From: Bdellovibrionales bacterium
Lineage (GTDB): Bacteria; Pseudomonadota; Alphaproteobacteria; UBA9219
Direction of reading: 5' to 3'
Length of the DNA: 64,000 bases
Assembly (NCBI GenBank): GCA_041662785.1
Contig: JBAZRW010000003.1
Span: 142,531 to 206,530, forward strand
A program made the translations under genes and the position numbers. The notes below the pieces were generated by a model that had not been told where the DNA came from, did no database searches, and saw only the letters and a list, made by a program, of their open reading frames with translations. Of this stretch, positions 6,036 to 52,763 are shown piece after piece; the first letter of the stretch is position 1, and each line of letters opens with the position of its first letter.

Positions 6036-6893
6036 TTAATTATTGCTGTGTCGGTAGGGGGTGGAGACACGGGGAAAAGCATCTCGAACGGGCTCGTATT
6101 TCTTAAGAATACGATCCATCTGACCACTGTAGACAATCTCCTGCATTGCGTAATCAAGAAACTCCTTTGTTTCATAATCGCCTTTTTTGACGACCAAGGC
6201 GTTTCCAAAAATCCGTAATGGTTTGTCGATGCCGAGGGAGCGAACTGTCCCCGGATTCTTTTGCAAAAACTCGGCAGCCATGGAAGGTTCGGCAAAAATA
6301 ACATCAGCTTTCTTCGTCACAACATTCTCAAAGTTTTGTGAAAACTGAGCTGTGTCAGGTAATGAGACACGCTCTAGCTCTGAAAAATCCGCACGGGCGA
6401 TAGAATCCTCCATCGCGCCATCGACGACCGATAACCGCGCCTTTGCCGTTCTAAGATCATCAAGCGTGTGAAACCGATTATCATCTGAACGAACCCACGC
6501 TTGAATGGTGCTGTAAAAGGCTGGCTGAGAGAAGGAAGCAGCCAAAGCGCGGCTAGCATTCGGCCACAGTCCGCCGCAGAAAACATCAAAACGACCCGCA
6601 TCCAATCCGGGCATGATGTTCTGAAAACCGACTTCTTCGGCCCATCGAATGCGCAAATCGGCATTACGACCAATTTGCTCCATGATGTCATAGAAAATGC
6701 CTGACAACTTTCCTGTGTTGGGGTCGAGGCGAATATACGGGGAATAGACCAGATATCCGCAACTGATCTCATGTGATGCGCGGATATGGTGCAGCGTTGA
6801 GGCGTTTCCATTTGCGTTTTGCTCTTGCGGTTTGCATCCACCAAGGAGTGAGATGCAAACGATAACTGCAAGTGATGCTTTACGAAAACTCAT
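6036..6893 (-). CDS. solute-binding protein family 3 (amino-acid ABC-type periplasmic binding protein-like) lipoprotein, orphan
   Basis: 285 aa with signal peptide plus lipobox (LLGGC) and the SBP_bac_3 fold pattern. ~40% identical to the paralogue at 24392-25252. No permease or ATPase genes adjacent. Confidence 0.7.
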   Translation of the reverse strand: MSFRKASLAVIVCISLLGGCKPQEQNANGNASTLHHIRASHEISCGYLVYSPYIRLDPNTGKLSGIFYDIMEQIGRNADLRIRWAEEVGFQNIMPGLDAGRFDVFCGGLWPNASRALAASFSQPAFYSTIQAWVRSDDNRFHTLDDLRTAKARLSVVDGAMEDSIARADFSELERVSLPDTAQFSQNFENVVTKKADVIFAEPSMAAEFLQKNPGTVRSLGIDKPLRIFGNALVVKKGDYETKEFLDYAMQEIVYSGQMDRILKKYEPVRDAFPRVSTPYRHSNN

Positions 6894-9494: not shown

Positions 9495-10124
9495 TTATTT
9501 CTCCTACCGGCTTGTCGCGATAGAGCTTATAAAAGCATCTTACGCGCCAGCGTCCGGCAAATTCGTTACCCAAAAAACACAGGCGCCTTCTGACATCGGG
9601 GATTGGGAATACCCAAATCAGGGTTATAGGAGCGCCTATGAGCGCTTTGGCCACCGACATCTTGTTCATGCGCTTTGAGTTATTGTTTTGACTCTATTAA
9701 AGGGTCAACGCAGAAAAAGGTTCCGGCTTTCTTAAGCACTTTTTTGATCATAAACACAAAAGAGCCTTGACGCAATCGCTTATTGGGCTAATTTTTCCCG
9801 TTCCGCAAATAACGCTAATTCTTTGATTGTAAACGAAGAAATATCAAAGGCTTCATATATAGGAATATATGGCTATGTTTTTATGATAATATGACTATAT
9901 GCCTAAAAATAATTTTTTAAAGTCCTAAATAGGTTGAATTTTATAAAATAAATTCCTTGAAAAAGGCTTAAAAAGCCGCCATACCCCCTTGACAATATCC
10001 TATAGGGTAGGAGGACATCGCCACGCACTCTTATGAGAGTGGGGCAAGTGTCCTTTATTTTGTTTTTGTTTAAGGGCGCTCCCATTTAAGGCGACGCGCC
10101 CGTTCGATGAAGAAAGAGGATACC

Positions 10125-13100
10125 ATGGCGCAGAGCAATCCTGTCGTTTCCGCAAAAACCACCAGCGGCGGCATTAGAATTCGCAAAAGCTTCGGTCGCA
10201 TTCCCGAAGTGGCTGAGATGCCCAACCTTATTGAGGTTCAGCGCCGCTCTTATGAGTATTTCTTGCAGATGGATGTTCCTCCTGCAAAACGCGACCGCGT
10301 TGGTTTGCAAGAAGTCTTGCGTTCGGCTTTCCCGATCCGCGACTTTGCAGAACGCGCCGTTCTGGACTTTGTCTCCTATGAACTGGAGCAGCCCAAATAT
10401 GACGTTGAGGAATGCCAACAACGTGGCATGACTTTCGCCGCCCCCTTAAAGGTGACTTTGCGCCTGACGGTTTTTGATGTTGATGAGACTACGGGCGTCA
10501 AGTCCATCCGCGACATTAAAGAACAAGATGTTTACATGGGCGATATGCCTTTGATGACCGCCAACGGCACGTTCGTCGTGAACGGCACTGAGCGCGTGAT
10601 CGTCAGCCAAATGCATCGCAGTCCGGGCGTGTTCTTTGACCATGATAAGGGCAAGACGCATGCTTCCGGCAAGTATCTGTTCGCCGCCCGCGTCATTCCT
10701 TATCGCGGTTCGTGGCTGGATTTTGAGTTCGACGCCAAGGATATGGTCTATGTCCGTATCGATCGCCGTCGCAAGCTGCCCGTCACCACGCTTCTCTATG
10801 CTTTGTATGGCGACGAGACGGAAAAGCTGCGCGTTAAGCGCGAGAAGGCTGGCAAGCCTTTAGAGCTTCATGAGATTCAAGGTATGGGCAAGGAAGAGAT
10901 TTTAAGCTCTTTCTATGATCTCGTTCCTTATAAGAAGGTCAAGAATGGCTGGACGACTGCCTTTAATGCCGAGCGCGTCAAGGGTCAGAAGTTGGCCTCC
11001 AAGATTGTCGATGCCAAGAATGGCAAGACGGTTGCGGAAGAGGGGACTAAGATGACCCCGCGCCTAATCACCAAGCTGGTTGATGCGGGCCTGAAGGAAG
11101 TTTTGGTGCAGGCCGAGAACCTGATTGGTTCTTACCTTGCTACCGATATGATCGACGAGAAGACGGGCGTTGTCTTGTTTGAAGCGGGCAATGAGCTGAC
11201 CGCCGAGATCCTTGAGCAGATCGAAGCGACGGGCGTGAAGGAAATCCAGTTGCTGGGTATCGATCACGTCAATGTTGGCCCCTATATTCGCAACACGATG
11301 GCAGCGGATAAGAATGTCTCACGCGAAGACGCGTTGATCGACATTTACCGCGTTATGCGTCCGGGCGAGCCCCCCACCGTTGAATCGGCAGAGGCTTTGT
11401 TCCAAGGCTTGTTCTTTAACCTAGAGCGTTACGATCTGTCGCCTGTGGGCCGCGTGAAGATGAACTCGCGCCTTGGTTTCAAGACCGACGATCAGGTTCG
11501 CGTTTTGCGCAAGGAAGACATCCTCAAGATCGTCAAGATCATGTGCGAGCTGAAAGATGGTCGCGGCGAGATTGACGACATCGATCACCTTGGCAACCGC
11601 CGCGTTCGCTCAGTCGGCGAATTGATGGAAAACCAATATCGTCTTGGTCTGCTCCGTATGGAACGCGCGATCCGCGAGCGTATGAGCAGCATCGAGATTG
11701 ACACGGTCATGCCTCATGACTTGATCAACGCGAAGCCTGCCGCTGCCGCTGTGCGTGAGTTTTTTGGCTCCTCGCAGCTCTCGCAGTTTATGGATCAAAC
11801 GAACCCGCTGTCTGAAATCACGCATAAGCGTCGCGTTTCGGCCCTGGGGCCTGGTGGTTTGACGCGTGAACGTGCGGGCTTTGAAGTCCGCGACGTGCAT
11901 CCCACGCATTATGGCCGTATCTGCCCGATTGAAACACCGGAAGGTCCGAATATCGGTCTGATCAACTCGCTGGCCACCTATGCCCGTGTGAACCAATATG
12001 GCTTTATCGAAAGCCCCTATCGCCGCGTGAAGAGCGCCAAGGTCACGAACGACGTGGTCTATCTCTCCGCGATGGAAGAAGGCCAATATACGATTGCTCA
12101 GGCGAACTCAGAGCTTGATAAGAACGGCAAGTTTGTTTTGGAAATGATTGTTTGCCGTAAGAACGGCGAAGTCATTGTCGCCGCCGCCGAGGAAATCGAT
12201 TTCATCGACGTCTCGCCCAAGCAAATCGTGTCCGTCGCCGCCGCGCTCATCCCGTTCCTTGAGAACGATGACGCGAACCGCGCTCTTATGGGCTCGAACA
12301 TGCAACGTCAAGCCGTTCCCTTGTTGCGCAACGATGCGCCGCTGGTGGGTACGGGTATGGAAGGCGTTGTGGCACGCGATTCCGGCGTGGCCGTTGTGGC
12401 TCGCCGTTCGGGCATCGTGGATCAGGTTGACGCGACGCGCGTTGTTGTGCGTGCGACAGAAAATCCCGATCCAACCGCGCCGACGGTTGATATTTACAAC
12501 ATGTTGAAGTTCCAACGCTCGAACCAAAGCACCTGCATCACGCAGCGCCCGATTATCAAGGTCGGCGATCAGGTTCAGGCGGGGCAGATCATTGCCGATG
12601 GTCCTTCCACGCAGTATGGTGAGTTGGCCTTGGGCCGTAACGTGCTGGTCGCGTTTATGCCTTGGAACGGCTACAACTTCGAAGATTCGATCTTGATTTC
12701 CGAACGTATCGTCAGCGAAGACGTGTTCACCTCTATTCACATCGAAGAGTTCGAAGTGATGGCGCGTGACACCAAGCTGGGTCAGGAAGAAATCACACGC
12801 GACATTCCGAACGTCGGCGAAGAAGCCCTGAAGGCTCTTGACGAAGCGGGCATCGTGTATGTCGGCGCGGAAGTCAATCCGGGGGATATTCTGGTCGGTA
12901 AAGTGACGCCCAAGGGCGAAAGTCCCATGACGCCGGAAGAAAAACTCCTTCGCGCCATCTTTGGTGAAAAGGCTGCTGACGTGCGCGACACGTCGCTTCG
13001 TCTTCCGCCGGGTGTGACGGGAACCATCGTCGAAGTGCGCGTGTTCTCGCGTCGCGGCGTCGAGAAAGATCAACGTGCCATTGCGATTGAACGGAGCGAA

Positions 13101-14390
13101 ATCGAACGCCTCGCCAAGGATCGCGATGATGAGCGTCTGATCATCGAGCGCGGCTATTTTGAGCGTTTGCGCCATCATCTGGTTGGGCAAAAGGCTTCGG
13201 CGGGTCCCAAGAATTTCCCGACGGGCAAAGCCATCACGGAAGAAATGCTGGCCGAGTTCACCAAGGGTCAATGGCGTCAGGTTAGCGTCAAGGACGACAA
13301 GGCGATGGAAAAGGTTGAAGCCATCGGTAAGGTCTTTGATGAACAGTTGAACGCTTTGAAGAAACGCTTTGAAGACAAGGTTGGCAAGCTGCAACGCGGC
13401 GACGAATTGCCTCCCGGTGTCATGAAGCTGGTCAAGGTGTTTGTGGCCGTGAAGCGCAAGCTTCAACCGGGTGATAAGATGGCCGGTCGTCACGGGAACA
13501 AGGGTGTCGTTTCGCGCATCCTGCCTGTTGAAGATATGCCTTATCTGCCCGATGGTCGCCCTGTTGACATCGTCCTCAATCCTTTGGGCGTGCCTTCGCG
13601 TATGAACGTCGGACAAATCCTTGAAACGCATTTGGGGTGGGCGTCGGCCAACCTTGGCCGTCAAATCGGTCAAGCGCTGGATGCCTATCAGCTTCAAATC
13701 GAGCAAGAGAAAAAGGCGTCGCTGGGCGATGTTCGCACTAAGCTTAAGGCCGTTTATGGCGATGACCTTTACAAGGCCGAGATTGCTGGGCTTTCCGACG
13801 AAGATACGGCTGGCCTTGCCAACAATCTGCGCGGCGGCGTTCCCTTTGCCACGCCCGTCTTTGACGGCGCGCGCGAGGCGGATATCGAACGCATGCTAGA
13901 GATGGCGGGTCTTGCCACATCGGGTCAGGAAACGCTGATCGATGGCCGTACAGGCGAAGCCTTCGACCGCAAGGTGACGGTTGGGTATATCTATATGCTC
14001 AAGCTGCACCATTTGGTTGATGACAAGATCCATGCGCGTTCCATCGGGCCTTACAGCCTTGTGACGCAACAGCCTTTGGGCGGTAAGGCGCAGTTCGGCG
14101 GCCAACGCTTCGGTGAAATGGAAGTCTGGGCGCTGGAAGCTTACGGCGCGGCGTACACGTTGCAGGAAATGTTGACGGTCAAGTCGGATGACGTGACGGG
14201 TCGTGCGAAGGTCTATGAGGCCATCGTGCGCGGTGACGACAACTTTGAATCCGGCATTCCTGAATCCTTCAACGTGTTGGTCAAGGAATTGCGTTCCTTG
14301 GGTCTGAACGTTGATCTGGACCAAAAGAAGCTGTTGGAGCTGGCGCAGGCTGAAGAAGATGCGGATGCCGCAGAAGCAGCAGCGGAATAG
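10125..14390 (+). CDS. rpoB: DNA-directed RNA polymerase subunit beta
   Basis: Unmistakable RpoB sequence throughout. Start chosen at the ATG preceded by AGAGGA; the upstream in-frame ATG at 10107 lacks an RBS. Confidence 0.97.
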
Positions 14391-14402
14391 GACTATAATA
14401 CA

Positions 14403-14693
14403 ATGACTGGCGGATATTTTTATATTCTTGCCAGTCAGAGAAACGGGACACTTTATGTTGGCGTTACGAACGATTTAGCAAGACGCGTGGCGGAACATAA
14501 GGAAGGCAAGATAAAAGGGTTTTCGACGCGTTACGGGATTAAGACGCTGGTTTATTACGAAGTTTATGATCGCATTCTTGATGCGATTGCTCGTGAAAAA
14601 GGCGTCAAGGAATGGAAACGCGCTTGGAAGTTGGAATTGATCGAGAGCACGAATCCGGAATGGAGGGATTTGTATCTTGATCTAAACAAATAG
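14403..14693 (+). CDS. free-standing GIY-YIG nuclease (YhbQ/UPF0213-like)
   Basis: 96 aa, GYFYILASQRNGTLYVGVTNDLARRVAEH = GIY-(10)-YVG motif. Lies 12 nt after the rpoB stop with a TATAAT directly upstream of the ATG. Confidence 0.8.
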   Translation: MTGGYFYILASQRNGTLYVGVTNDLARRVAEHKEGKIKGFSTRYGIKTLVYYEVYDRILDAIAREKGVKEWKRAWKLELIESTNPEWRDLYLDLNK

Positions 14694-14694
14694 C

Positions 14695-14800
14695 GTCATT
14701 CCGGCGCAAGCCGGAATCCAGCGCCGAGTGTCCACGAGGCGTATGAGTCATAAGCGCCGCAGACGCGGCGCACTGGATCCCGACTTTCGTCGGGATGACG
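14695..14800. repeat. MITE-like palindromic repeat, family B copy (inverted relative to 39297)
   Basis: GTCATTCCGGCGCAAGCCGGAATCCAGC ... GCACTGGATCCCGACTTTCGTCGGGATGAC. The core is the reverse complement of the core at 39330-39380. Confidence 0.75.
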
Positions 14801-14877
14801 CAAGGGATGAGGTTTGGCGAAATAGAGCGAGAGTTGTTATAACGAATACGATGCAGAGGAATAGGAGAATAATCGCG

Positions 14878-19421
<4,544 letters not shown>

Positions 19422-19534: not shown

Positions 19535-19665
19535 AAAGAAAAAAGAAAACGGGATCCCCGCTTTCGCGGGGATGACGATAGCAGGATGAAATTAAACACA
19601 AAACCCGTCATTCCCGCGCAAGCGGGAATCCCGTTTGTTTTCTTTCTCAACGAGTCGTTTCATGA
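19535..19665. repeat. MITE-like palindromic repeat, family A copy
   Basis: AGAAAACGGGATCCCCGCTTTCGCGGGGATGACG - atagcaggatgaaattaaacacaaaac - CGTCATTCCCGCGCAAGCGGGAATCCCGTTTGTTTTCT. Arms are about 38 nt and inverted. Confidence 0.8.
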
Positions 19666-22115: not shown

Positions 22116-22788
22116 TGCGATTAAACTCGATCCCTCATGGCTTGCCGTGATTGGCGGCGAGTTCGACCAACCCTATATGCAAAAGCTGAAGCAGTTTTTG
22201 CTGGAGGAGAAAACGGGGCGGCACATTGTCTATCCGCGCGGCGACCATATCTTTAACGCGCTGAACGCGATTCCGTTTGATCGCGTGCGTGTTGTTATCA
22301 TCGGACAAGACCCCTATCACGGCGAGGGGCAGGCGCATGGTCTTTGCTTTTCAGTGCAGGATGGCGTGGCGCTGCCGCCCAGCCTTATCAATATCTATAA
22401 GGAAATTGCGGCGGAGTATGGCTGCGCGATGCCCAAAAGCGGCGACCTTACGCGCTGGGCAAAGCAAGGCGTCTTGCTGCTTAATGCAACGCTGACCGTG
22501 CGGGCGGGGCAGGCGGGCTCTCATCAAAACAAAGGGTGGGAGACATTCACCGACGCCGTGATCCGCGCCGTGAATGACCAGCGCGAGCATGTCGTGTTTT
22601 TGCTGTGGGGGGCCTATGCCCAAAAGAAGGGCGCGATGATCGACCGCACGCGCCACAGCGTTCTAACCGCGCCGCATCCCTCGCCGCTTTCCGCGCACAG
22701 AGGGTTCCTAGGCTGCGGACACTTCCGCGCCGCCAACGAATACCTTGTCCGGCAGGGGCAAGAGCCGATTGATTGGGTGGGGGAGTAA
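22102..22788 (+). CDS. ung: uracil-DNA glycosylase, family 1
   Basis: [19 protein letters not shown] water-activating loop; HPSPLS motif near the C-terminus. Confidence 0.9.
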
Positions 22789-22811
22789 GGCGCAGTCGCG
22801 CCCAAAAGAAA

Positions 22812-22885
22812 TGGAGCGGGTGAAGGGAATCGAACCCTCATAGCCAGCTTGGAAGGCTGGTGCTTTACCACTAAGCTACACCCGC
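22812..22885 (-). tRNA. tRNA-Gly (anticodon TCC)
   Basis: Reverse complement GCGGGTGTAGCTTAGTGGTAAAGCACCAGCCTTCCAAGCTGGCTATGAGGGTTCGATTCCCTTCACCCGCTCCA folds as a cloverleaf with anticodon-loop UCC. Confidence 0.85.
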
Positions 22886-22935
22886 TCATGGGTGGTTGTT
22901 CTGTATCATGCCGTTTTTACGGCGGCAAGCCGCCG

Positions 22936-23040
22936 TGGGTGAAGGGAATGATCAAAAACAGGCGGAACGCGCCTGTTTTTGCCCCTTCGGGCGCCCCCGC
23001 TTCGCGGGATGCGTCCAAAATGCTTTCGCATTTTGTCGAT
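22936..23040. repeat. 105-bp segment B between 100-bp direct repeats: tRNA-Gly 3'-end fragment + GATCAAAAAC + palindromes
   Basis: TGGGTGAAGGGAAT (matches the tRNA-Gly 3' part) - GATCAAAAAC - CAGGCG/CGCCTG hairpin - TTTTTGCCC - cccgcTTCGgcggg and aaatgcTTTCgcattt hairpins. Confidence 0.6.
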
Positions 23041-23090
23041 CCTCATAGCCAGCTTGGAAGGCTGGTGCTTTACCACTAAGCTACACCCGC
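23041..23090 (-). pseudogene. truncated duplicate of tRNA-Gly (positions 1-50 only)
   Basis: 50 nt identical to the 5' half of the tRNA at 22836-22885, followed by an identical 50-bp upstream region (23091-23140 = 22886-22935); the T-arm and acceptor 3' strand are missing. Confidence 0.8.
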
Positions 23091-23152
23091 TCATGGGTGG
23101 TTGTTCTGTATCATGCCGTTTTTACGGCGGCAAGCCGCCGTTAATTCCTGCC

Positions 23153-23298
23153 GTCATCCCCGCGAAAGCGGGGATCCAGCTGCGAGCGATAGCGAGCGTG
23201 TGAGTCGAACAAGACAACAAACAGCACTTCCCTAGACCTTTTTTGAGTCACGTGGCCCGCAGACGCGGGCCGCTGGATCCCCGCTTTCGCGGGGATGA
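23153..23298. repeat. MITE-like palindromic repeat, family B copy
   Basis: GTCATCCCCGCGAAAGCGGGGATCCAGC ... GCTGGATCCCCGCTTTCGCGGGGATGAC perfect inverted termini around a ~90-bp core. Confidence 0.8.
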
Positions 23299-23512
23299 CT
23301 GGAATAGGTAACAATAAGGCATCATCCTCTATCACGAGCCTTTTATTACAGCAAGATAGAAGTGTAAGAAAGGTATAAAATCCTCTTTCTTTTTCTGTAC
23401 AAATGGGGTAAAAAGCACCGTTCCCAACAAATCAATAAGCTTTGTCCGACGTGATCGCCGGACGGGCGATTCTGGGTTCAAGGACAGTTCTTAATGATTG
23501 TATGAGGCTTTT

Positions 23513-23588
23513 AGGAGTGTAGCTCAATTGGTAGAGCGTCGGTCTCCAAAACCGAAGGCTGCGGGTTCGATCCCCTCCACTCCTGCCA
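23513..23588 (+). tRNA. tRNA-Trp (anticodon CCA)
   Basis: AGGAGTGTAGCTCAATTGGTAGAGCGTCGGTCTCCAAAACCGAAGGCTGCGGGTTCGATCCCCTCCACTCCTGCCA. It has the canonical position upstream of secE-nusG. One C-U mismatch in the T-stem. Confidence 0.85.
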
Positions 23589-23630
23589 CCTCATAATGGC
23601 CAAGAACTTGAAAAAAACAAGGAGCCTACA

Positions 23631-23828
23631 ATGGCAAAGTTAGTTGAGTTTTTTAATGAGACCAAGCGAGAGATCGGCAAGGTGACTTGGCCGACGCAAA
23701 AAGAAATCGTCATGACGACCGTGTTGATTGTGGCCATGGCCTTGGTCGCTGGGTTGTTTTTCTTTTTCGTCGATAACGTCTTGGGTTTCGCAATTAGCAA
23801 GATTTTGGGCATGAGAGCCGGTTCATAA
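23631..23828 (+). CDS. secE: preprotein translocase subunit SecE
   Basis: 65 aa with a single TM helix; conserved GKVTWPT motif; precedes nusG. Confidence 0.85.
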   Translation: MAKLVEFFNETKREIGKVTWPTQKEIVMTTVLIVAMALVAGLFFFFVDNVLGFAISKILGMRAGS

Positions 23829-23840
23829 GGAGCATTCACG

Positions 23841-24371
23841 ATGGCACTTCGTTGGTACGTTATTCACGTTTATTCGGGCTTTGAAAAAAAGGTCGCGCAG
23901 ACCATTCGCGAAACCGCGATGAAAAAAGGTCTTGAAGATTTCTTCTCGGAAATCCTTGTCCCCACTGAAGAGGTGATCGAGGTTCGTCGTGGCAAGAAAG
24001 TCGGGGCCGAGCGCAAGTTCCTTCCGGGCTATGTCCTGATTAAGATGGACCTGACGGACGAGAGCTGGCATCTGGTCAAGAACACGGCCAAGGTCACGGG
24101 CTTTTTGGGCGGCGGCGGCAAGCCTTCGCCTATCTCGGAAAAGGAAGCCCAGCGCATCCTTAACCAAGTCCAAGAAGGCTTTGAACATCCCAAACCCTCT
24201 ATCACCTTTGTGGTGGGTGAGCAGGTTCGCGTGGCCGAAGGGCCGTTTGCCTCATTTAATGGCGTTGTTGAGGACGTGGATGAGGGTAAATCGCGCTTGA
24301 AGGTTGCGGTGTCGATCTTTGGCCGCGCTACGCCAGTTGAGCTGGAATTCACGCAGGTGGAGAAGATTTAG
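23841..24371 (+). CDS. nusG: transcription termination/antitermination factor NusG
   Basis: 176 aa; NGN domain (WYVIHVYSGFEKKV) and KOW domain (VGEQVRVAEGPFASFNGVVEDVD). Confidence 0.95.
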   Translation: MALRWYVIHVYSGFEKKVAQTIRETAMKKGLEDFFSEILVPTEEVIEVRRGKKVGAERKFLPGYVLIKMDLTDESWHLVKNTAKVTGFLGGGGKPSPISEKEAQRILNQVQEGFEHPKPSITFVVGEQVRVAEGPFASFNGVVEDVDEGKSRLKVAVSIFGRATPVELEFTQVEKI

Positions 24372-24391
24372 ATCAACTAAGGAGTAGTTAC

Positions 24392-25252
24392 GTGAAAACT
24401 GTTGGTCTGTTCGTTGCCGCCATTCTAATCGCGTTATCGTCCGTTTGGCTTCACGATAAAAATGTGCACACTGTCAATGCAACGCAAGAGACAGCCTATG
24501 ATCGCGTGTTGCACACCAAGACTTTGCGGTGTGGATACGCTGATTGGCCTCCTCATGGACTTGTAAAAGATCCGAATACGGGAAAAATTTCCGGCGTCAT
24601 GTACGATATCCTTGAAGAGATTGGACGTCGTTTGAGTCTTAAGATTGACTGGAGCGAGAATACGGGGTGGAGCAATATTGTAAGCAGTCTTCAATCAAAG
24701 CGCATTGACGTTTTCTGCGCTGGTTTGTGGGTGAATGCCGAGCGTGGTCGTTCCTTGACATATTCTATGCCACTTTTTTTCAACGCATCGTTCCCCTTTG
24801 TCAGAATCGATGATCATCGGTTTGATAAGGACATCAAACGTGCCGATTCATCGGACATTCGTTTTTCTTCCATAGAGGGTGAGTTATCGGATGCCACAGC
24901 ACGCCTTCATTTCCCGAAAGCGCAGAAAATACCGGTGAGCCAGATGTTGCAGGCTTCCGAAGCCCTGAACAACATTGCAGTTAACAAAGCGGATATTATT
25001 ATTCTGGATTACAGCATGGGGAAAGGGTTCATAGATTCTAACCCTTCTACCTTGCGTAAATTAGGGGACAAACCTTTTCAGGTTTTCCAGAACTCCCTTG
25101 GCTTTGATATTCATGAAAACACGCTGCGCGATATGATTAACAATGCCCTTAATGAGATGCACAATCAGGGGGTTATTGCCAATATTGTTGCGAAACACAG
25201 TAACGATCCCAGTGAGTTTATTCCAGTCGCTCCGTCTTATTTGCAGCCGTAG
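24392..25252 (+). CDS. solute-binding protein family 3, orphan paralogue inserted between nusG and rplK
   Basis: 286 aa, GTG start with AAGGAG RBS, signal peptide. About 40% identical to the 6036-6893 product (shared CGY...DPNTGK.SG..YDI.E.IG......I.W.E..G......L.....DVFC.GLW). Confidence 0.7.
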   Translation: MKTVGLFVAAILIALSSVWLHDKNVHTVNATQETAYDRVLHTKTLRCGYADWPPHGLVKDPNTGKISGVMYDILEEIGRRLSLKIDWSENTGWSNIVSSLQSKRIDVFCAGLWVNAERGRSLTYSMPLFFNASFPFVRIDDHRFDKDIKRADSSDIRFSSIEGELSDATARLHFPKAQKIPVSQMLQASEALNNIAVNKADIIILDYSMGKGFIDSNPSTLRKLGDKPFQVFQNSLGFDIHENTLRDMINNALNEMHNQGVIANIVAKHSNDPSEFIPVAPSYLQP

Positions 25253-25441
25253 CTATAGTTTTTGTAATGGTCTTATTGGCCAGAAAAACACGTTGCTTTC
25301 CCTTCTGTTAACCTCTATAAAACCGCTTAAGCAAAAGGTGTGGGAGGTTCTCCCCGAAAAGTTCCCTTGGGGAGCCGGACCACGCCGCCGCTGTTTTTTG
25401 AAGGTGATTATCGACGGTTTTGGCCTGCTTTATCCTATAGC

Positions 25442-25523
25442 CGTCACTCCCGCGTAAGCGGGAGTCCCGTTTGTTTTAACAAGTAAACGGGATCCCCGCT
25501 TTCGCGGGGATGACGAAAATGGA
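25442..25523. repeat. family A arm-pair in outward (rearranged) orientation
   Basis: CGTCACTCCCGCGTAAGCGGGAGTCCCGTTTGTTTT-aacaagt-AAACGGGATCCCCGCTTTCGCGGGGATGACG. Confidence 0.6.
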
Positions 25524-25696
25524 AAAGATTGGAAACAATCGATAAGATTCTTCAAGAAGTTGTGGTTTAAGGGGGATGAAAATCCTTCGAATACAATGGT
25601 TGTCATGGATGGCTTTTGGCTTTGGCCAAAGGTTGTTTATGGCGTTGTGAAACGTTGGCGTTTAGTCGGTTCTTGTGTGCCCGTCTATACTTTAGC

Positions 25697-25850
25697 GTCA
25701 TTCCGGCGAAAGCCGGAATCCAGAACTTTTATGCCGCGCAGACGCGCGGCGCTGGATCCCGCTTTCCCGTCTACGCTGCTCCGCAGCTTCGCCGGGCTAA
25801 GCTTCAGCCCTGCGAAGCTCGTCAGAGCGAAGCAGGGTCAGCGGGATGAC
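25697..25850. repeat. MITE-like repeat, family B copy with internal insert
   Basis: GTCATTCCGGCGAAAGCCGGAATCCAG ... GCTGGATCCCGCTTTCCCGTCTACGCTGC ... CAGCGGGATGACG. Confidence 0.6.
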
Positions 25851-25932
25851 GTGATGGAATAAGGGCGCGTCCGATCTAACTAAACTCCAGAATCAAACAT
25901 CCAACCGATAGGGGTTGGAAGGAGAGAGCAAA

Positions 25933-26364
25933 ATGGCAAAGGAAATTGTCGGCTATATCAAGCTGCAAGTACCGGCTGGATCGGCGACACCGTCTCCGCC
26001 AATTGGCCCCGCTTTGGGTCAACGCGGCCTAAACATCATGGACTTCTGCAAGCAGTTCAACGCCAAGACGCAAGGCATGGAAAAGGGTATGCCCATTCCT
26101 GTCGTGATCTCAGCCTTTTCGGATCGCACGTTTACGTTCGTGACGAAGAAGCCCCCCAATACCTATTGGATCAAGAAGGCGATCAAGCTTGAGCATGGTT
26201 CCAAGACTCCGGGTACAGCGATGGTTGGCAAGATCACGATGACGCAAATTCGTGAAATTGCAAAAGAGAAAATCGTTGATATGAACGCGAACGATATCGA
26301 AGCGGCGGCCAAAATGCTCGTCGGTTCGGCTCGTTCGATGGGCCTTTTGGTAGTGGAGGAATAA
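25933..26364 (+). CDS. rplK: 50S ribosomal protein L11
   Basis: [43 protein letters not shown]. Start trimmed to the ATG after GGAGAG. Confidence 0.95.
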
Positions 26365-26367
26365 GCC

Positions 26368-27078
26368 ATGAAACAAGGAAAAAAACTCCGCAAGGTTCTC
26401 CCCGCTGTTGATCGCAAGAAGCTGTATGCTCTTGAAGATGGCGTGAAGCTTGTCAAGAAGAACGCGGGCGATCTATCGCGCAAGTTCACCGAGACTCTGG
26501 ACATTGCCATCAATCTTGGTATCGACACAAAGCAATCGGATCAGTCTGTGCGTGGCATGGTGCAATTGCCTCATGGTACGGGCAAAAGCGTCCGCGTGGC
26601 CGTGTTCGCCAAGGGCGAAAAAGCGGATGCCGCTTTGGCCGCTGGCGCGGATGTTGTCGGCGCTGACGATTTGGCTGAAAAGATTATGGGCGGTTTTTCT
26701 GCCTTTGATCGCGTCATTGCGACCCCTGACATGATGGGCGTTGTTGGCAAGTTGGGTAAGGTTCTGGGGCCTCGTGGCCTTATGCCTAACCCGAAGCTTG
26801 GCACTGTGACCCCGAACGTCGTGGAAGCGATCAAGTCGGCCAAGGCTGGCTCGATTGAGTTCCGCGCCGAAAAGGGCGGTATCATTCATGCTGGCATCGG
26901 CAAGATCAGCTTTACCGAAGAGCAGTTGATCGAGAATGCTCGCGCCTTTATCAGCGCGATCGCCAAGGCTCGTCCCGCTGGCGTGAAGGGCACTTACATC
27001 AACCGCGTGGCGTTGTCCTCAACCATGGGCCCCGGCCTGAAGGTTGATCTTTCGACAATGCTTGGCGAACAGGCCTAA
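26368..27078 (+). CDS. rplA: 50S ribosomal protein L1
   Basis: 236 aa; conserved L1 sequence; start 3 nt after the rplK stop. Confidence 0.95.
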
Positions 27079-27103
27079 CGCTTGATCGTTTAAAGACTAA
27101 AAA

Positions 27104-27138
27104 AGCCCCGCTTATTGCAAGGTCAGCGGGGTTTTTGT
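27104..27138 (+). terminator. rho-independent terminator after rplA
   Basis: CCCCGCT-tattgcaaggtc-AGCGGGG followed by TTTTTG. Confidence 0.7.
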
Positions 27139-27235
27139 TGCCACTTTTTTCATCATTATTGGCGCTGTAAATGGCTCTAAAATTGGGGTTCGGGATTTGT
27201 TTATTATCAAGGCGTTAGAAAAAAAACATCGATTT

Positions 27236-27530
27236 ACAGCCCTAAGAGCGTGGGATAGTGCCACTCAGTCGCCTTCCGCTCAAAGTTAATGCGGTAAGCC
27301 TTTGAAATATAATAAAACTGACTCGATTTTTTGGCATGGCTAACCAATTGATTTTACATGGTTTTATGAACTTCGTCCGATTTTGGATCGCCAAAAGCAA
27401 AAAAAACGCAGGATTGGGGGCGACTCTTTTCGTCATCCCGCACCCCTCTACGCCCTTTGGGCTTCGCGGGGCAGGCGAAGCCTTGCGCGAAGGCGGGACG
27501 ATGATGCGGGACCTAGGGGACTGGGCGACG
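27236..27530. repeat. ~300-bp repeat, family C copy 1
   Basis: Shares about 230 nt of interrupted similarity with 52133-52440 (AGCGTGGrATAGTGCCACTCAGT..CCTTCCGCTCAAAGTTAA ... GCTAACCAATTGATT ... CCGATTTTGGATyGCCAAAAGCAAAAAA ... CGTCATCCCsgaCCCCTCTrCGCCCTTyGGGCTTCGCGGGGCAGGCrAAGC). Confidence 0.7.
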
Positions 27531-27638
27531 AATGAATGATAGAGAGGGCGGAGAGAGCGGCTTGATCCCAGATCAACTTTCTTTCGTCTCACAACGGTGA
27601 GCCGAAAAGAAAGTTTTCTGGGATGGCGGCAGGTGGCC

Positions 27639-28385
27639 TTACACCATAATCATGCCGCCGTTGATATGTATCGTTTGGCCCGTGATATAACGTGCTTCCT
27701 CGCTGGCCAAAAAGACGATGCTGGCCGCGACATCTTTCGGCTCACCCAGATAACCCAACGGAATGTTGGCGAGCATTTTGTTCTTTTGCTCGTCATTCAG
27801 CTTGTCGGTCATGGCCGTGACGATAAAGCCCGGTGCGACGCAGTTGACGGTGACGCCGCGTGGCGCCATTTCCTGCGCCAGCGATTTGCTCATAGCGATC
27901 AGGCCGCCTTTGGACGCCGCATAGTTGGCTTGACCTGCGTTGCCCATCACGCCGACGACGGACGCCATGTTGATGATGCGGCCCCAGCGGCGTGTCATCA
28001 TGCCTTTCAGCGCGGCACGCGAGAGGCGAAACGCAGAGGACAAGTTCACGTTCATCACAAGATCCCAGTCTTCATCCTTCATGCGCATGGCAAGGCCATC
28101 GCGCGTCAGGCCAGCGTTGTTGATCAGAATATCCACGCCGCCGCCCAATTTCTCCTCGGCTTCCTTGATAAGGGTCGGGGGAACGGCGGGATCGGTCAGG
28201 TTGCCAACAATAGTCACCGCATGCGCCGCGCCGCCAAGTTCGGCTTGCAGCGCTTCGATGCCTTCGGGGCGAATGTCGGTCAGGGCAACGCGTGCGCCTT
28301 GCGCCACCAGCATCTTGGCGATAACCGTGCCTAGGCCGCCTGCCGCGCCCGTAACCAGAGCGTTCTTTCCATTCAGTGACAACAT
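27639..28385 (-). CDS. fabG: 3-oxoacyl-[ACP] reductase
   Basis: 248-aa SDR: TGAAGGLG cofactor motif, NAG, S...YAASK catalytic triad; adjacent to fabD. Confidence 0.9.
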   Translation of the reverse strand: MLSLNGKNALVTGAAGGLGTVIAKMLVAQGARVALTDIRPEGIEALQAELGGAAHAVTIVGNLTDPAVPPTLIKEAEEKLGGGVDILINNAGLTRDGLAMRMKDEDWDLVMNVNLSSAFRLSRAALKGMMTRRWGRIINMASVVGVMGNAGQANYAASKGGLIAMSKSLAQEMAPRGVTVNCVAPGFIVTAMTDKLNDEQKNKMLANIPLGYLGEPKDVAASIVFLASEEARYITGQTIHINGGMIMV

Positions 28386-28408
28386 GGTCTTTCCTTTCGT
28401 GTTTTTCT

Positions 28409-29353
28409 TTATAAGGATTGTTTGAGGTAAGCGTCGATATCTTCGGGAGTTTGCAAAGATACCGCCGTAATTTCTTTATCGATGCGTTTGGTCAGGCCCG
28501 CCAAAACAGCGCCAGAGCCGCATTCGACCAGCTGATCGACGCCATGCGCCTTCATAAACAAAACGGACTCGCGCCAACGGACAGAGCCAGTGATTTGCTG
28601 CACCAACAGATCGCGGATAACATCGGGGTCGCTTGTTGCCAACGCCGTGACGTTTGAGACGACAGGCACGCAAGGTGGCATCAGATGAACTTGTGCCAAG
28701 GCCTCCCTCATGACATCGGCGGCGGGCTGCATAAGGGGGCAATGAAACGGCGCGCTGACGGGCAGCTTGATGCAGCGTTTCAGGCCCTTTTCAGCGGCCA
28801 GCGCGATGGCGCGATCAATCGCGTGGTTGTTGCCGCTAATGACGACTTGGCCATCCGCGTTATCGTTGGCGGCCACGCAAATGTCGCCTTGTGATGCAGC
28901 AGCGGCAATCTCTTTGGCGAGATCGACATTCGCGCCCAGCAAAGCCGCCATGCCGCCGATCCCCGCAGGGACGGCCTTTTGCATAGCGCGGCCACGCTTG
29001 CGTAAGAGGGTCGCGGTGTTCGCCAGCGTCAGGCTTTCCGCCGCGCAAAGCGCCGCATATTCGCCAAGGCTATGCCCCGCTACAAAGGCGGCCATTTCGG
29101 GCAGTTTCAGTCCACTTTGCGACATTAAAACGCGCAAAACGGCGATGCTTACGGCCATCAAGGCGGGCTGCGTGTTTTCTGTCATTTTCAGCTCATCTTC
29201 CGAGCCGTCAAACATAAGGGTCGAGAGTTTCTGTTCCAAAACCTCATCAACCTCTTGAAAAACCATGCGAGCCTCAGGGAAGGCCTCAAAAAGAGCCTTG
29301 CCCATGCCGATCTTTTGGCTTCCCTGTCCGGGAAATACGAATGCTTTTGTCAT
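28409..29353 (-). CDS. fabD: malonyl-CoA:ACP transacylase
   Basis: FPGQGSQ and GHSLGEYAAL active-site motifs. Confidence 0.9.
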   Translation of the reverse strand: MTKAFVFPGQGSQKIGMGKALFEAFPEARMVFQEVDEVLEQKLSTLMFDGSEDELKMTENTQPALMAVSIAVLRVLMSQSGLKLPEMAAFVAGHSLGEYAALCAAESLTLANTATLLRKRGRAMQKAVPAGIGGMAALLGANVDLAKEIAAAASQGDICVAANDNADGQVVISGNNHAIDRAIALAAEKGLKRCIKLPVSAPFHCPLMQPAADVMREALAQVHLMPPCVPVVSNVTALATSDPDVIRDLLVQQITGSVRWRESVLFMKAHGVDQLVECGSGAVLAGLTKRIDKEITAVSLQTPEDIDAYLKQSL

Positions 29354-30465: not shown

Positions 30466-30585
30466 TAGAGAAAAAAGAAAATGGATGCCAGCCTTCGCTG
30501 GCATGACAAGGGGTAGGAGGTAAAGTTAATCCTAATCCGTCATCCCCGCGCAGGCGGGGATCCCATTTTTTAATTTTTCCACTGC
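30466..30585. repeat. MITE-like repeat, family A variant copy
   Basis: AGAAAATGGATGCCAGCCTTCGCTGGCATGACAA - core ggggtaggaggtaaagttaatcc - GTCATCCCCGCGCAGGCGGGGATCCCATTTTTTAATTTTT. Confidence 0.6.
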
Positions 30586-39296: not shown

Positions 39297-39401
39297 GTCA
39301 TCCCCGCGAAGGCGGGGATCCAGCTGCGCGGCGTCTGCCGCGCCTAAGACTCATACGCCTCGCGGACGCTCGGCGCTGGATTCCCGCCTTCGCGGGAATG
39401 A
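39297..39401. repeat. MITE-like palindromic repeat, family B copy
   Basis: GTCATCCCCGCGAAGGCGGGGATCCAGC-49 nt core-GCTGGATTCCCGCCTTCGCGGGAATGAC. Confidence 0.8.
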
Positions 39402-39465
39402 CAAAACGGGTAAGGACTAACGCCATCGCCCGTCTTGGCAGAAAATCGATCTTAATGAAATAATC

Positions 39466-43067: not shown

Positions 43068-44117
43068 GTGCAACGGTTCTTAAGCTCTATCGCGCCCGTA
43101 AAGCAAGAGCGCATGAAACCATTAACTATAATGATATGTTTCCTTATTCCTATGGTGTTGTTAAAAGCAGTCAAAGATCAACACGAGGAGCATATTCATA
43201 TGGGTAAAAACAAGAAAGTCAGCCCGAAAGCGATTGCCAAGCTTAAAGAGCAAGGAGAAATTTTAGGCGCATTTGTCGACAACGCCCATGCTCTTTTAAG
43301 TAAAGTGGCGAAGACGAAGGATTTTGCCGCGCTTAAAAAAATTATCCCCATCCTAAGCCAAGCCATTAGGGCAAGCGGTCAAATGGGCGCGTTTAAAGAG
43401 CTCCCTTCTGCCCTAAACCAAAGGGGCTTCATCCATGAATCATTGGCTTTAGATAATGCGTACATCAGCACGCTCCCGCGTGACAGCGCCCTTTGGAGTG
43501 GGATTGTTTTGCGCTACGCGACGGGCGCTGTAAATCTACTGCCAAAGGGTGAAAGCCCTCTTCCTTATCTTTTTAGCATAGCCCCTTATCTTAGACGAAG
43601 TGCGTTGTTATCTCAAACAAAACCTCTCGTGGCTCAATGCTTTTTGCAGGCGGCGCGTCAGGCGACAGAAAATGGTCGCGTTTGTATGGAAGAAGTCGCG
43701 CATAGGTTATATAGGGGGGACACGAAGAGACAGAACAGAATGGCAAGAAGGTTGGCGTGCGACACGATCAAATTTGCCGCTGATAATTCTGTTGCCTATA
43801 AGGCTTATCATGTGTCCTTATCGTCTGTTGTGAACGAAAGAAAAAAACTACGTGATGCCATGAAAACAAAGGAGCAATTGGGCCTTGTTTGTTCTGGTCG
43901 CGAAAAACGCCGAGAGAATCTCTTGCTGGATATTCAGAAAAAAGCGGGCGAAGATTTGATGAGGCGCATGGCCAAGGATCCCGCCGTCCACACGGAACAT
44001 CACTCTGTCCTTATCGCTGATGATGTCTCACGCGACATTCCCATCTTGCGGAAACGATTCAATCAGATGATGAATAAAATACAGCAATATGATGTCCAAG
44101 ACTTAGACTGGGGTTAA
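43068..44117 (+). CDS. hypothetical protein (349 aa), lower-GC, next to the tRNA-Pro repeat
   Basis: Long ORF with a hydrophobic N-terminal segment and no recognisable domain. Start uncertain (alternative ATGs at 43113, 43200). Confidence 0.4.
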   Translation: MQRFLSSIAPVKQERMKPLTIMICFLIPMVLLKAVKDQHEEHIHMGKNKKVSPKAIAKLKEQGEILGAFVDNAHALLSKVAKTKDFAALKKIIPILSQAIRASGQMGAFKELPSALNQRGFIHESLALDNAYISTLPRDSALWSGIVLRYATGAVNLLPKGESPLPYLFSIAPYLRRSALLSQTKPLVAQCFLQAARQATENGRVCMEEVAHRLYRGDTKRQNRMARRLACDTIKFAADNSVAYKAYHVSLSSVVNERKKLRDAMKTKEQLGLVCSGREKRRENLLLDIQKKAGEDLMRRMAKDPAVHTEHHSVLIADDVSRDIPILRKRFNQMMNKIQQYDVQDLDWG

Positions 44118-44157: not shown

Positions 44158-44300
44158 AATAAAAAAAACGGGATCCCCGCTTTGCCCTTTCGCCCGCCGC
44201 AAGAGCGGCGGGACGAGGGCGCGGGGATGACGATAGAGGGTAAAACTTAAACAAAAACCCGTCATGCCCGTGAAAACGGGCATCCCGTTTGTTTTCTTTT
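44158..44300. repeat. MITE-like repeat, family A copy with nested insert in left arm
   Basis: AAAACGGGATCCCCGC[tttgccctttcgcccgccgcaagagcggcgggacgagggc]GCGGGGATGACG - atagagggtaaaacttaaacaaaaaccc - GTCATGCCCGTGAAAACGGGCATCCCGTTTGTTTTCT. Confidence 0.75.
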
Positions 44301-52440: not shown

Positions 52441-52763
52441 AGAGCGACTCAGGTAGAAATTTCAGGTGATGGATCCCGCCTTCCGGCGGGATGACGGGAG
52501 GGGGGCTGGCATCCCTTTTTTTTGAATCATTTTATCTGACGTAGGTTATAATGGGTTACGCAAGAGGTCTATTTCACAAGATCGCTAATCTCTCTAAAAT
52601 TTTCAATTTTCAAATTGACTTCCATTTTCATTCATTCTATGCCACGGCAGCGTTGCACACCGCGTTCAAGGTGGGCCTCGTCGTGAATCCTTCTTAACGT
52701 ATGCAATGAAGGTATTCGCTTCGCAAAACCAACTTGCTCGTCTACATAACGATGGATCCTTTC

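Follow-up and report, generated by a model that had tools for sequence, protein, structure and literature searches.

A solute-binding protein gene between nusG and rplK, a likely accessory receptor gene of an ABC importer encoded elsewhere

The 64 kb stretch of DNA analysed here (hereafter the window; all coordinates are window positions) carries, between the housekeeping genes nusG and rplK, a gene for a family-3 solute-binding protein (SBP), designated SBP1. We consider it likely that SBP1 is an accessory receptor of an amino-acid ATP-binding cassette (ABC) importer encoded elsewhere, that its gene was appended to the secE-nusG unit, and that the palindromic repeats found next to it are later insertions. 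The family membership of the protein, its predicted fold, the genomic contexts of the family and the conservation of the promoter and leader of rplKA carry this reading.

In the proposed mechanism, SBP1 would be an exported periplasmic class II protein that binds an amino acid or close analogue and hands it over to an importer of the polar-amino-acid type. This importer would be encoded elsewhere beside a third paralogue and be made up of a single 221-aa permease, presumably homodimeric, and a single ATPase of 242-243 aa; SBP1 would be one of several old, diverged receptors on this single shared translocon. Its gene would have joined the 3' end of the secE-nusG unit, with its own ribosome-binding site and expression by read-through, while the rplK-rplA unit would keep its own promoter-like element and L1-type leader just past the SBP stop, and the two palindromic repeats would have entered that leader later and independently.

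Family, predicted fold and probable translocon of SBP1

SBP1 belongs to a distinct subfamily of solute-binding proteins. It matches PF00497 with 71.3 bits (gathering cut-off 26.4) and is 100% identical to an annotated NCBI protein from a metagenome-assembled genome (MAG) labelled 'Bdellovibrionales bacterium' (MFA6279979.1, on a contig of 207,865 bp). At E <= 1e-30, a search of 1.84 billion proteins places 931 cluster representatives (50% identity) in the family, whose signature motifs are RCGY, FCAG and DDHRFD. The AlphaFold2 model of SBP1 (pLDDT 94; a predicted structure only) has a two-lobed alpha/beta class II binding-protein fold, and Foldseek aligned it with solved amino-acid SBPs at TM-scores of 0.8-0.88, normalised to the target. 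The closest solved relatives, according to Foldseek and to a profile search of the PDB, are AncCDT-1 (E 7e-37), ArgBP, LAO/HisJ, GlnH and a Trp-binding SBP. In the profile alignment, residues R118, D206 and W87 of SBP1 correspond to Arg85, Asp170 and Trp60 of AncCDT-1, and R118 and D206 constitute the dyad typical of alpha-amino-acid binding, in which Arg serves the carboxylate and Asp/Glu the ammonium group; of 155 family members, 127 keep the Arg, 132 an acidic residue and 152 the Trp. The ligand of SBP1 is thus most likely an amino acid or a close analogue. Structure prediction, which had been proposed as a means of identifying the ligand class, gave the class II fold and amino-acid SBPs as the nearest solved structures, which suggest the ligand class. 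The model also starts with a hydrophobic helix (residues 2-24), and putative signal-peptidase sites were recognised by eye between ALS and S in SBP1 and between ALA and S in its orthologues P0003 and P0005; an N-terminal export signal is therefore predicted, which may be a cleaved signal or an anchor.

The window encodes a second member of the family, SBP2, on the opposite strand. The identity between the two proteins had been estimated at about 40% but amounts to 32.5% over 277 aa, and SBP2 is not inserted in rne, as had been thought: it begins 21 nt past the stop of rne, whose product is intact (859 aa, with S1, RNase_E_G and thioredoxin-like domains), and lies upstream of trpB-trpA. A distance tree places SBP1, SBP2 and the paralogue beside the translocon (described below) in three separate subfamilies, which indicates that the paralogues are old, and each of these subfamilies mixes translocon-adjacent and dispersed members. 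A tblastn search did not find rne beside the other sampled copies of the family. A tryptophan-related ligand was considered and dropped, as the SBP near trpBA in locus L046 is not the closest relative of SBP2.

The genomic contexts of the family were surveyed in 79 loci from species-representative genomes, to which the contexts of selected homologues were added (87 loci in the block count); the labels of the homologous loci are mostly Alphaproteobacteria, some being Micavibrio or Pseudobdellovibrionaceae. As NCBI taxonomy assigns Micavibrio to the order Bdellovibrionales, the window probably comes from a Micavibrio-like alphaproteobacterium. The family hidden Markov model recovered 160 SBP copies from the sampled loci, and 99 SBP blocks of 1 to 11 tandem copies each were counted, 30 of which directly abut a 221-aa permease (PF00528) and/or a 242-aa ATPase (PF00005). 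The nearest homologues of SBP1 outside its own clade (47-52% identical) are all located in SBP(n)-permease-ATPase operons, and single genomes carry one array with the translocon together with several lone copies at other sites. A permease of this type (P0178, MFA6279256.1, on a contig of 519,780 bp labelled 'Bdellovibrionales bacterium') is apparently encoded in the same assembly as SBP1, because its accession is 723 numbers away from that of the window protein and the organism label is the same. On a contig with an identical permease, the gene order is SBP-family paralogue, permease, ATPase and rpmE, the paralogue being 35% identical to SBP1. The accession series likewise ties P0007 to a permease, P0195, in GCA_050252315.1; for the genome of L004, no permease was found by accession series among the best 120 matches.

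The two window genes had been called orphans, a status that is not supported in view of the operons of the outside-clade homologues and of the permease and third paralogue in the same accession series; the window copies are orphan by position but probably not by function. The cognate permease that the sequence-only reading proposed to seek elsewhere in the genome would be represented by P0178, and none is present within the window. Two further observations concern amino-acid uptake in related bacteria. In a MAG labelled 'uncultured Micavibrio sp.' (L070, 3487-12659), an ATPase and a permease gene are followed by at least 11 tandem SBP paralogues, and the cultured relative Micavibrio aeruginosavorus ARL-13 was reported to be without any known amino-acid transporter (PMC3189940).

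The junction of the secE-nusG and rplKA units

The plus-strand order at the locus is tRNA-Trp, secE, nusG, the SBP1 open reading frame (ORF), a 680-nt spacer, rplK and rplA (Table 1). The coordinates, the TAAGGAG motif and the Pfam match confirm a 286-aa family-3 SBP gene with a GTG start and a ribosome-binding site, 20 nt after nusG (nusG stop ending at 24371, SBP1 GTG at 24392), and the view of SBP1 as a gene additional to the canonical nusG-rplK junction is supported. As the gap is only 20 nt and a terminator scan found no terminator between nusG and SBP1, we infer co-transcription of the pair.

The rplKA unit has a control region of its own downstream of SBP1. Nine related loci share both hexamers of a promoter-like element (TTGCTT-17 nt-TATAAA) as well as the spacing between them, in each case 5' of a leader hairpin and of rplK. 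A consensus promoter scan made no call at this element, whose second hexamer ends in A, and the case for a promoter is made by its conservation in relatives. The hairpin folds with -27.6 kcal/mol (z -2.1), and its ten homologues share an invariant GUGG/CCAC stem and NA / NNA bulges with an invariant A on each side; the distal helix varies in sequence and is wholly replaced in the more distant locus L095, and compensatory change was seen at only 2 pairs. An exact-pattern scan of metagenome contigs returned 10 hairpin hits, of which seven lie 5' of rplK with the same two hexamers and an eighth is on a contig that carries nusG, the promoter and the hairpin and ends before rplK. The hairpin also occurs 5' of rplK in the window and in five SBP-bearing loci. 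It also resembles the L1 site of 23S rRNA. Scans of 22700-27200 and of the spacer alone with Rfam 15 left the leader unmatched. It fits the description of L1-binding rplKA leaders, namely a position 5' of rplK, a stem of 6-12 bp and an internal bulge with an unpaired A (PMC3616713), and is regarded here, from its sequence and fold, as a candidate L1-binding site. A U-rich tract follows the hairpin in several lineages. Another conserved block of the leader, AGGGGGATGAAAATCCTTCG, might fold into a small hairpin with a GAAA loop.

Promoter and leader directly follow the SBP stop in the window, L004, L087, L001 and L008, and stand directly upstream of rplK where relatives lack an SBP at the site. 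The distance from the hairpin to rplK is about 540 nt in the window, where the repeat elements lengthen it, 224-315 nt in SBP-bearing relatives and 40-150 nt in relatives without an SBP here. SBP1 had been described as having landed inside an operon. Its stop codon is followed by the conserved promoter-like element and the L1-type leader, so that the gene instead stands at the boundary of two transcription units and splits no operon.

An SBP adjoining rplKA was found in six kinds of locus. The order nusG-SBP-rplK is present in the window and in L004 and L005 (SBP 60% identical, L11 88%), and in L087 with an additional SBP on the opposite strand; L001-L003 have lpdA-SBP-rplK and L008 has sulfatase-SBP-rplK. 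In other close relatives, the rplKA promoter is preceded by rpmD-rplO (L097, L098) or by an uncharacterised 233-aa ORF (L100). In L101 (710-1576, minus strand) and L096 (409-1164), an unrelated ORF of 251-288 aa occupies the nusG-rplK gap on the opposite strand, and in L095 nothing but the leader lies between nusG and rplK. As other relatives carry other genes at this position, the SBP insertion is common to a subclade at most, and the possibility raised earlier, that the nusG-SBP-rplK order is ancestral to the whole clade, holds at most for that subclade. The variety of upstream genes further points to the region 5' of the rplKA promoter as a rearrangement hot spot. A neighbour-joining tree of L11 and L1 groups the SBP-bearing genomes, but its distances are nearly equal (0.10-0.16) and the grouping is not robust, and the leader sequence of the window looks closest to those of relatives without an SBP at the site; for these two reasons a single-gain scenario was not relied on. 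As regards the loci themselves, promoter, leader and genes of rplKA in L097 and L098 come right after rpmD-rplO, the end of the spc ribosomal operon, and the ORFs in the gap of L101 and L096 have hydrophobic segments and no NCBIfam match.

The two palindromic repeats reported between nusG and rplK are both real, at 25441-25516 (element A) and 25696-25850 (element B). A 25-nt unit, GTCAYYCCSGCGNAAGCSGGRRTCC, occurs in 16 copies in the window and in none of 20 shuffles; most units are arranged in inverted pairs 72-155 nt apart, and their stems show compensatory changes. Element A contains the inverted repeat I1 (31-nt arms, 84% complementary) with units at 25443-25467 (+) and 25490-25514 (-), and element B contains a unit at 25697-25721, the inverted repeats I4-I6 and inverted CGTCAT..ATGACG ends, with relatives at 14691-14782, 23152-23299 and 39297-39402. 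Inverted ends (25441/25516 and 25696/25850) and many dispersed copies are traits of miniature inverted-repeat transposable elements (MITEs). In Rfam, the repeat hairpin matched only unrelated families, and these weakly; the weak matches of FtrB and BjrC68 to the 25-nt unit suggest that this hairpin type is widespread. Elements A and B are both situated within the rplKA leader, 3' of its hairpin, and one repeat unit resembles an intrinsic terminator. In an alignment with five relatives they fall in window-specific insertions, the sites being empty in L100, L101, L096, L097 and L098, although the alignment is too diverged to give exact insertion ends; repeat units are likewise absent from the corresponding loci of L004, L087 and L008. 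The link that had been drawn between SBP1 and MITE-like copies is accordingly not supported, since none of the relatives examined has the copies in this spacer, and elements A and B are later, lineage-specific insertions unrelated to the presence of SBP1.

Table 1. Features of the secE-rplA region and the position of SBP2
Feature	Position	Strand	Basis
secE	23631-23828	+	Pfam SecE, E 2.6e-16
nusG	23841-24371	+	Pfam NusG, E 2e-31, plus KOW; 91% identity to L004 NusG
Ribosome-binding site TAAGGAG	24379-24385	+	6 nt 5' of SBP1 GTG; sequence reading
SBP1	24392-25252	+	286 aa, GTG start; Pfam PF00497 SBP_bac_3, E 8e-20
Promoter-like element TTGCTT-17 nt-TATAAA	25293-25321 (hexamers 25293-25298, 25316-25321)	+	Conservation in relatives
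Leader hairpin, candidate L1-binding autoregulatory site	25337-25386	+	Fold and conservation
REP/MITE-like element A	25441-25516	none	Two 25-nt hairpin units, inverted orientation
Second conserved leader block AGGGGGATGAAAATCCTTCG	25570-25589	+	Aligned in window, L100, L101, L096
REP/MITE-like element B	25696-25850	none	155 nt, inverted ends CGTCATTCC...GGGATGACG
rplK (L11)	25933-26364	+	Pfam Ribosomal_L11_N and Ribosomal_L11
rplA (L1)	26368-27078	+	236-aa ORF; 86-88% identity to Ribosomal_L1-annotated genes of L001, L004
SBP2	6036-6893	-	Pfam PF00497, E 1.2e-20; lipobox LLGGC

Other features of the window were noted. The rplKAJL-rpoBC gene string is broken: rpoB-rpoC are located upstream of secE, with lipA, ung and tRNA genes between (10107-19421), the genes next after rplA are fabG and fabD, which lie on the opposite strand (27079-29353), and rplJ-rplL are absent between rplA and the rpo genes. 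The spacer between rpoB and rpoC (14391-15233, 844 nt) contains a pair of repeat units (14695-14799) and ORFs without Pfam or NCBIfam match. Further 25-nt units, mostly intergenic inverted pairs, are found at 589-669, 14695-14799, 19552-19631, 23153-23299, 30539-30563, 39297-39402, 44261-44285 and 52471-52495. An exact 101-nt direct repeat (22836-22936 and 23041-23141, spaced 205 nt) copies the 5' half of tRNA-Gly(TCC) (22812-22885, minus strand) and its upstream sequence, with a weak second tRNA predicted by Rfam (23021-23090, 29.1 bits); either a recent duplication or an error of assembly may explain it. A further accessory or foreign gene may be the 349-aa ORF at 43068-44117, whose G+C content at third codon positions (GC3), 0.483, is as low as in both SBP genes and for which NCBIfam gave no match.

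Alternative explanations

Several observations weigh against SBP1 being an amino-acid receptor that is expressed with nusG and served by a distant importer. The canonical Ser/Thr ligand contacts are replaced in the family (GLWxN and DGEMSD motifs) and no NCBIfam equivalog model reaches its cut-off for it, so the ligand may be other than a standard amino acid; Pu1068, a structurally close SBP, binds no amino acid (10.1101/157495). No permease or ATPase of this type is encoded within the window, and the same-genome argument is one of accession numbering, not of a shared assembly record. In L087, the rplK-side SBP is parted from nusG by the opposite-strand SBP, so that co-transcription with nusG is not conserved. 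Finally, GC3 is 0.49 in the SBP genes against 0.63-0.65 in the ribosomal-protein and RNA-polymerase genes of the window; the lower value does not suggest an adaptation to very high expression.

The placement in housekeeping operons could itself be adaptive, with dispersed receptor genes gaining growth-coupled expression in a promoter-poor, reduced genome. The observation of copies inside or beside core operons (nuo, sdh, lpdA-SBP-rplK and rne-SBP) in several genomes stands. The arrangements include nuoB-SBP-nuoC-SBP-nuoD (L013), SBP-nuoC (L016), nuoD with SBPs on both flanks (L042), sdhCD followed by three SBPs and sdhA (L006), an SBP upstream of der (L011), an SBP downstream of a gene for a Cys/Met pyridoxal phosphate-dependent enzyme (L015) and an SBP array downstream of ruvB (L081). 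Recurrence across genomes in nuo, sdh, pdh/rplKA, nusG/rplKA and rne speaks for such an adaptation, as do same-strand neighbours in 87 of 128 cases and a median gap of 34 nt; however, co-directionality of about 70% and short gaps are ordinary in compact bacterial genomes. The 125 flanking genes of dispersed copies span 137 Pfam families with no dominant or preferred partner, related genomes carry unrelated genes at the same nusG-rplK site, and L087 breaks the co-orientation. Adaptive placement is, for these reasons, judged unlikely. The same holds for its strongest form, of which we are doubtful, namely that a clade of small-genome, Micavibrio-like uncultured alphaproteobacteria has systematically spread the receptor genes of one amino-acid ABC importer over its core operons (nuo, sdh, pdh, secE-nusG/rplKA, rne), the expression of each receptor being hard-wired to a different housekeeping unit. 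If true, dispersal would let these bacteria regulate nutrient capture with neither promoters nor regulators dedicated to it.

SBP1 could also be a true orphan receptor without a transporter, which would signal to a chemoreceptor or sensor kinase, serve a TonB-dependent system or work on the surface of prey or host. The absence of transporter genes beside either window copy would agree with this, family-3 SBP domains are part of sensors (BvgS) and of MltF, both of which are among the weaker structural and sequence matches, and the lineage is labelled with Micavibrio-type predators. Orthologues and paralogues nevertheless stand repeatedly beside a highly conserved permease/ATPase pair, and SBP1, with 286 aa and a single periplasmic-binding-protein fold, has no fused signalling or lytic domain. 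Neither a sensor or chemoreceptor nor a chemotaxis, TonB or host-interaction partner, as had been imagined for these proteins, recurs among the genes flanking the dispersed copies, and a transporter-less receptor is quite improbable.

That the SBP gene is a recent mobile insertion, brought in by the MITE-like repeats, directed by them or gained through horizontal transfer, appears very unlikely. Its supporting evidence is the GC3 of SBP1 (0.488, against a window mean of 0.626 with a standard deviation of 0.058), the repeats that adjoin the gene, and the situation in two near-identical relatives. In L001, the orthologue lies between 149-nt direct repeats that are 91% identical, and the gene upstream of the SBP differs in L008. 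The repeats of L001 (5771-5919 and 6865-7012), found also in L002, L003, L093 and L099, include hairpin units; L008 has the downstream copy only (3009-3156), with the sulfatase gene upstream instead, and this difference points to a repeat-associated rearrangement at this junction. The linkage of SBP and rplKA is, however, common to lineages whose SBPs are only 57-61% identical, the window repeats are absent from the spacers of all relatives and lie downstream of the rplKA promoter rather than around the SBP gene, and SBP1 and SBP2 belong to separate old subfamilies. The low GC3 is common to the whole family, the translocon-adjacent copy included, and no transposase or integrase is found among the 25 commonest Pfam families of the 125 flanking genes. 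Of the earlier suggestion of a mobile or proliferating family, proliferation thus stands (the family is multi-copy, and one MAG has up to 11 copies in tandem), while mobility does not, given the flanking families, the age of the subfamilies and an insertion shared by diverged relatives.

A periplasmic enzyme of the cyclohexadienyl dehydratase (CDT, PheC) type would fit the best PDB profile matches, which are in the CDT lineage (AncCDT-1, AncCDT-3, AncCDT-5 and PaCDT), and the enzyme-like setting of a lone gene without transporter neighbours, but is extremely unlikely, since the required general acid of these enzymes, Glu173, whose E173Q exchange abolishes activity, is replaced by Met209 in SBP1, the top match AncCDT-1 is itself a non-catalytic binder of cationic amino acids, and family members stand beside ABC genes, the criterion used for calling Pu1068 an SBP (10.1101/157495). 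The Glu173 position is Met in SBP2 and Ala in the translocon-adjacent paralogue, and is mostly hydrophobic in the family, the commonest residues being T, V, L, I, M and F.

Comparison with known systems

SBP1 is most likely an accessory binding protein of a multi-receptor ABC importer, that is, a known kind of gene in an unusual but explicable position. HisJ and ArgT (LAO) share the HisQMP2 translocon, which belongs to the polar amino acid transport family of ABC importers. The present system resembles HisJ/ArgT in the class II fold, in the positions of the Arg/Asp dyad and in having several diverged binding proteins per translocon. It differs in having a single 221-aa permease gene instead of two, up to 11 tandem SBPs with many others scattered far from the translocon, replaced Ser/Thr ligand contacts and no matching equivalog model. 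A further parallel is Pseudomonas aeruginosa, in which five paralogous SBPs, DppA1-A5, set the specificity of one ABC translocon, DppBCDF (PMC4206461). Those proteins, unlike SBP1, belong to the peptide-binding family 5 and to a large free-living genome, and no embedding in ribosomal or respiratory operons is reported for them (PMC4206461). The branch of AncCDT-1, Ws0279 and Pu1068 provides the best profile and structural matches and the equivalents of Trp60, Arg85 and Asp170 that are kept in SBP1 (10.1101/157495); SBP1 is distinct from it through an identity of only about 20%, the signature motifs of its own family and the absence of the general acid of the enzymes.

The locus itself is comparable to secE-nusG and rplKA of Escherichia coli, two adjacent units of which the second has its own promoter and a bulged stem 5' of rplK (PMC3616713). 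Unlike in E. coli, an extra gene ends the first unit here, the hairpin of this clade is 135-540 nt away from the rplK start rather than close to it, and the leader of the window is interrupted by repeats. These repeats are similar to repetitive extragenic palindromic (REP) sequences, bacterial interspersed mosaic elements (BIMEs) and small MITEs of proteobacteria, being short GC-rich extragenic palindromes with many copies, often in inverted pairs, with compensatory stem changes, and absent at the orthologous sites of relatives; their unit sequence differs from that of E. coli REP.

The main outcome is a corrected view of the locus: secE-nusG and rplKA meet at a boundary between two transcription units, where extra genes are tolerated in this clade and the control region of rplKA is intact. 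Genomes of this lineage appear to contain many SBPs for a single small ABC translocon. Should the ligands vary from one receptor to the next, the receptors would determine what these uncultured and possibly predatory bacteria obtain from their surroundings or from prey.

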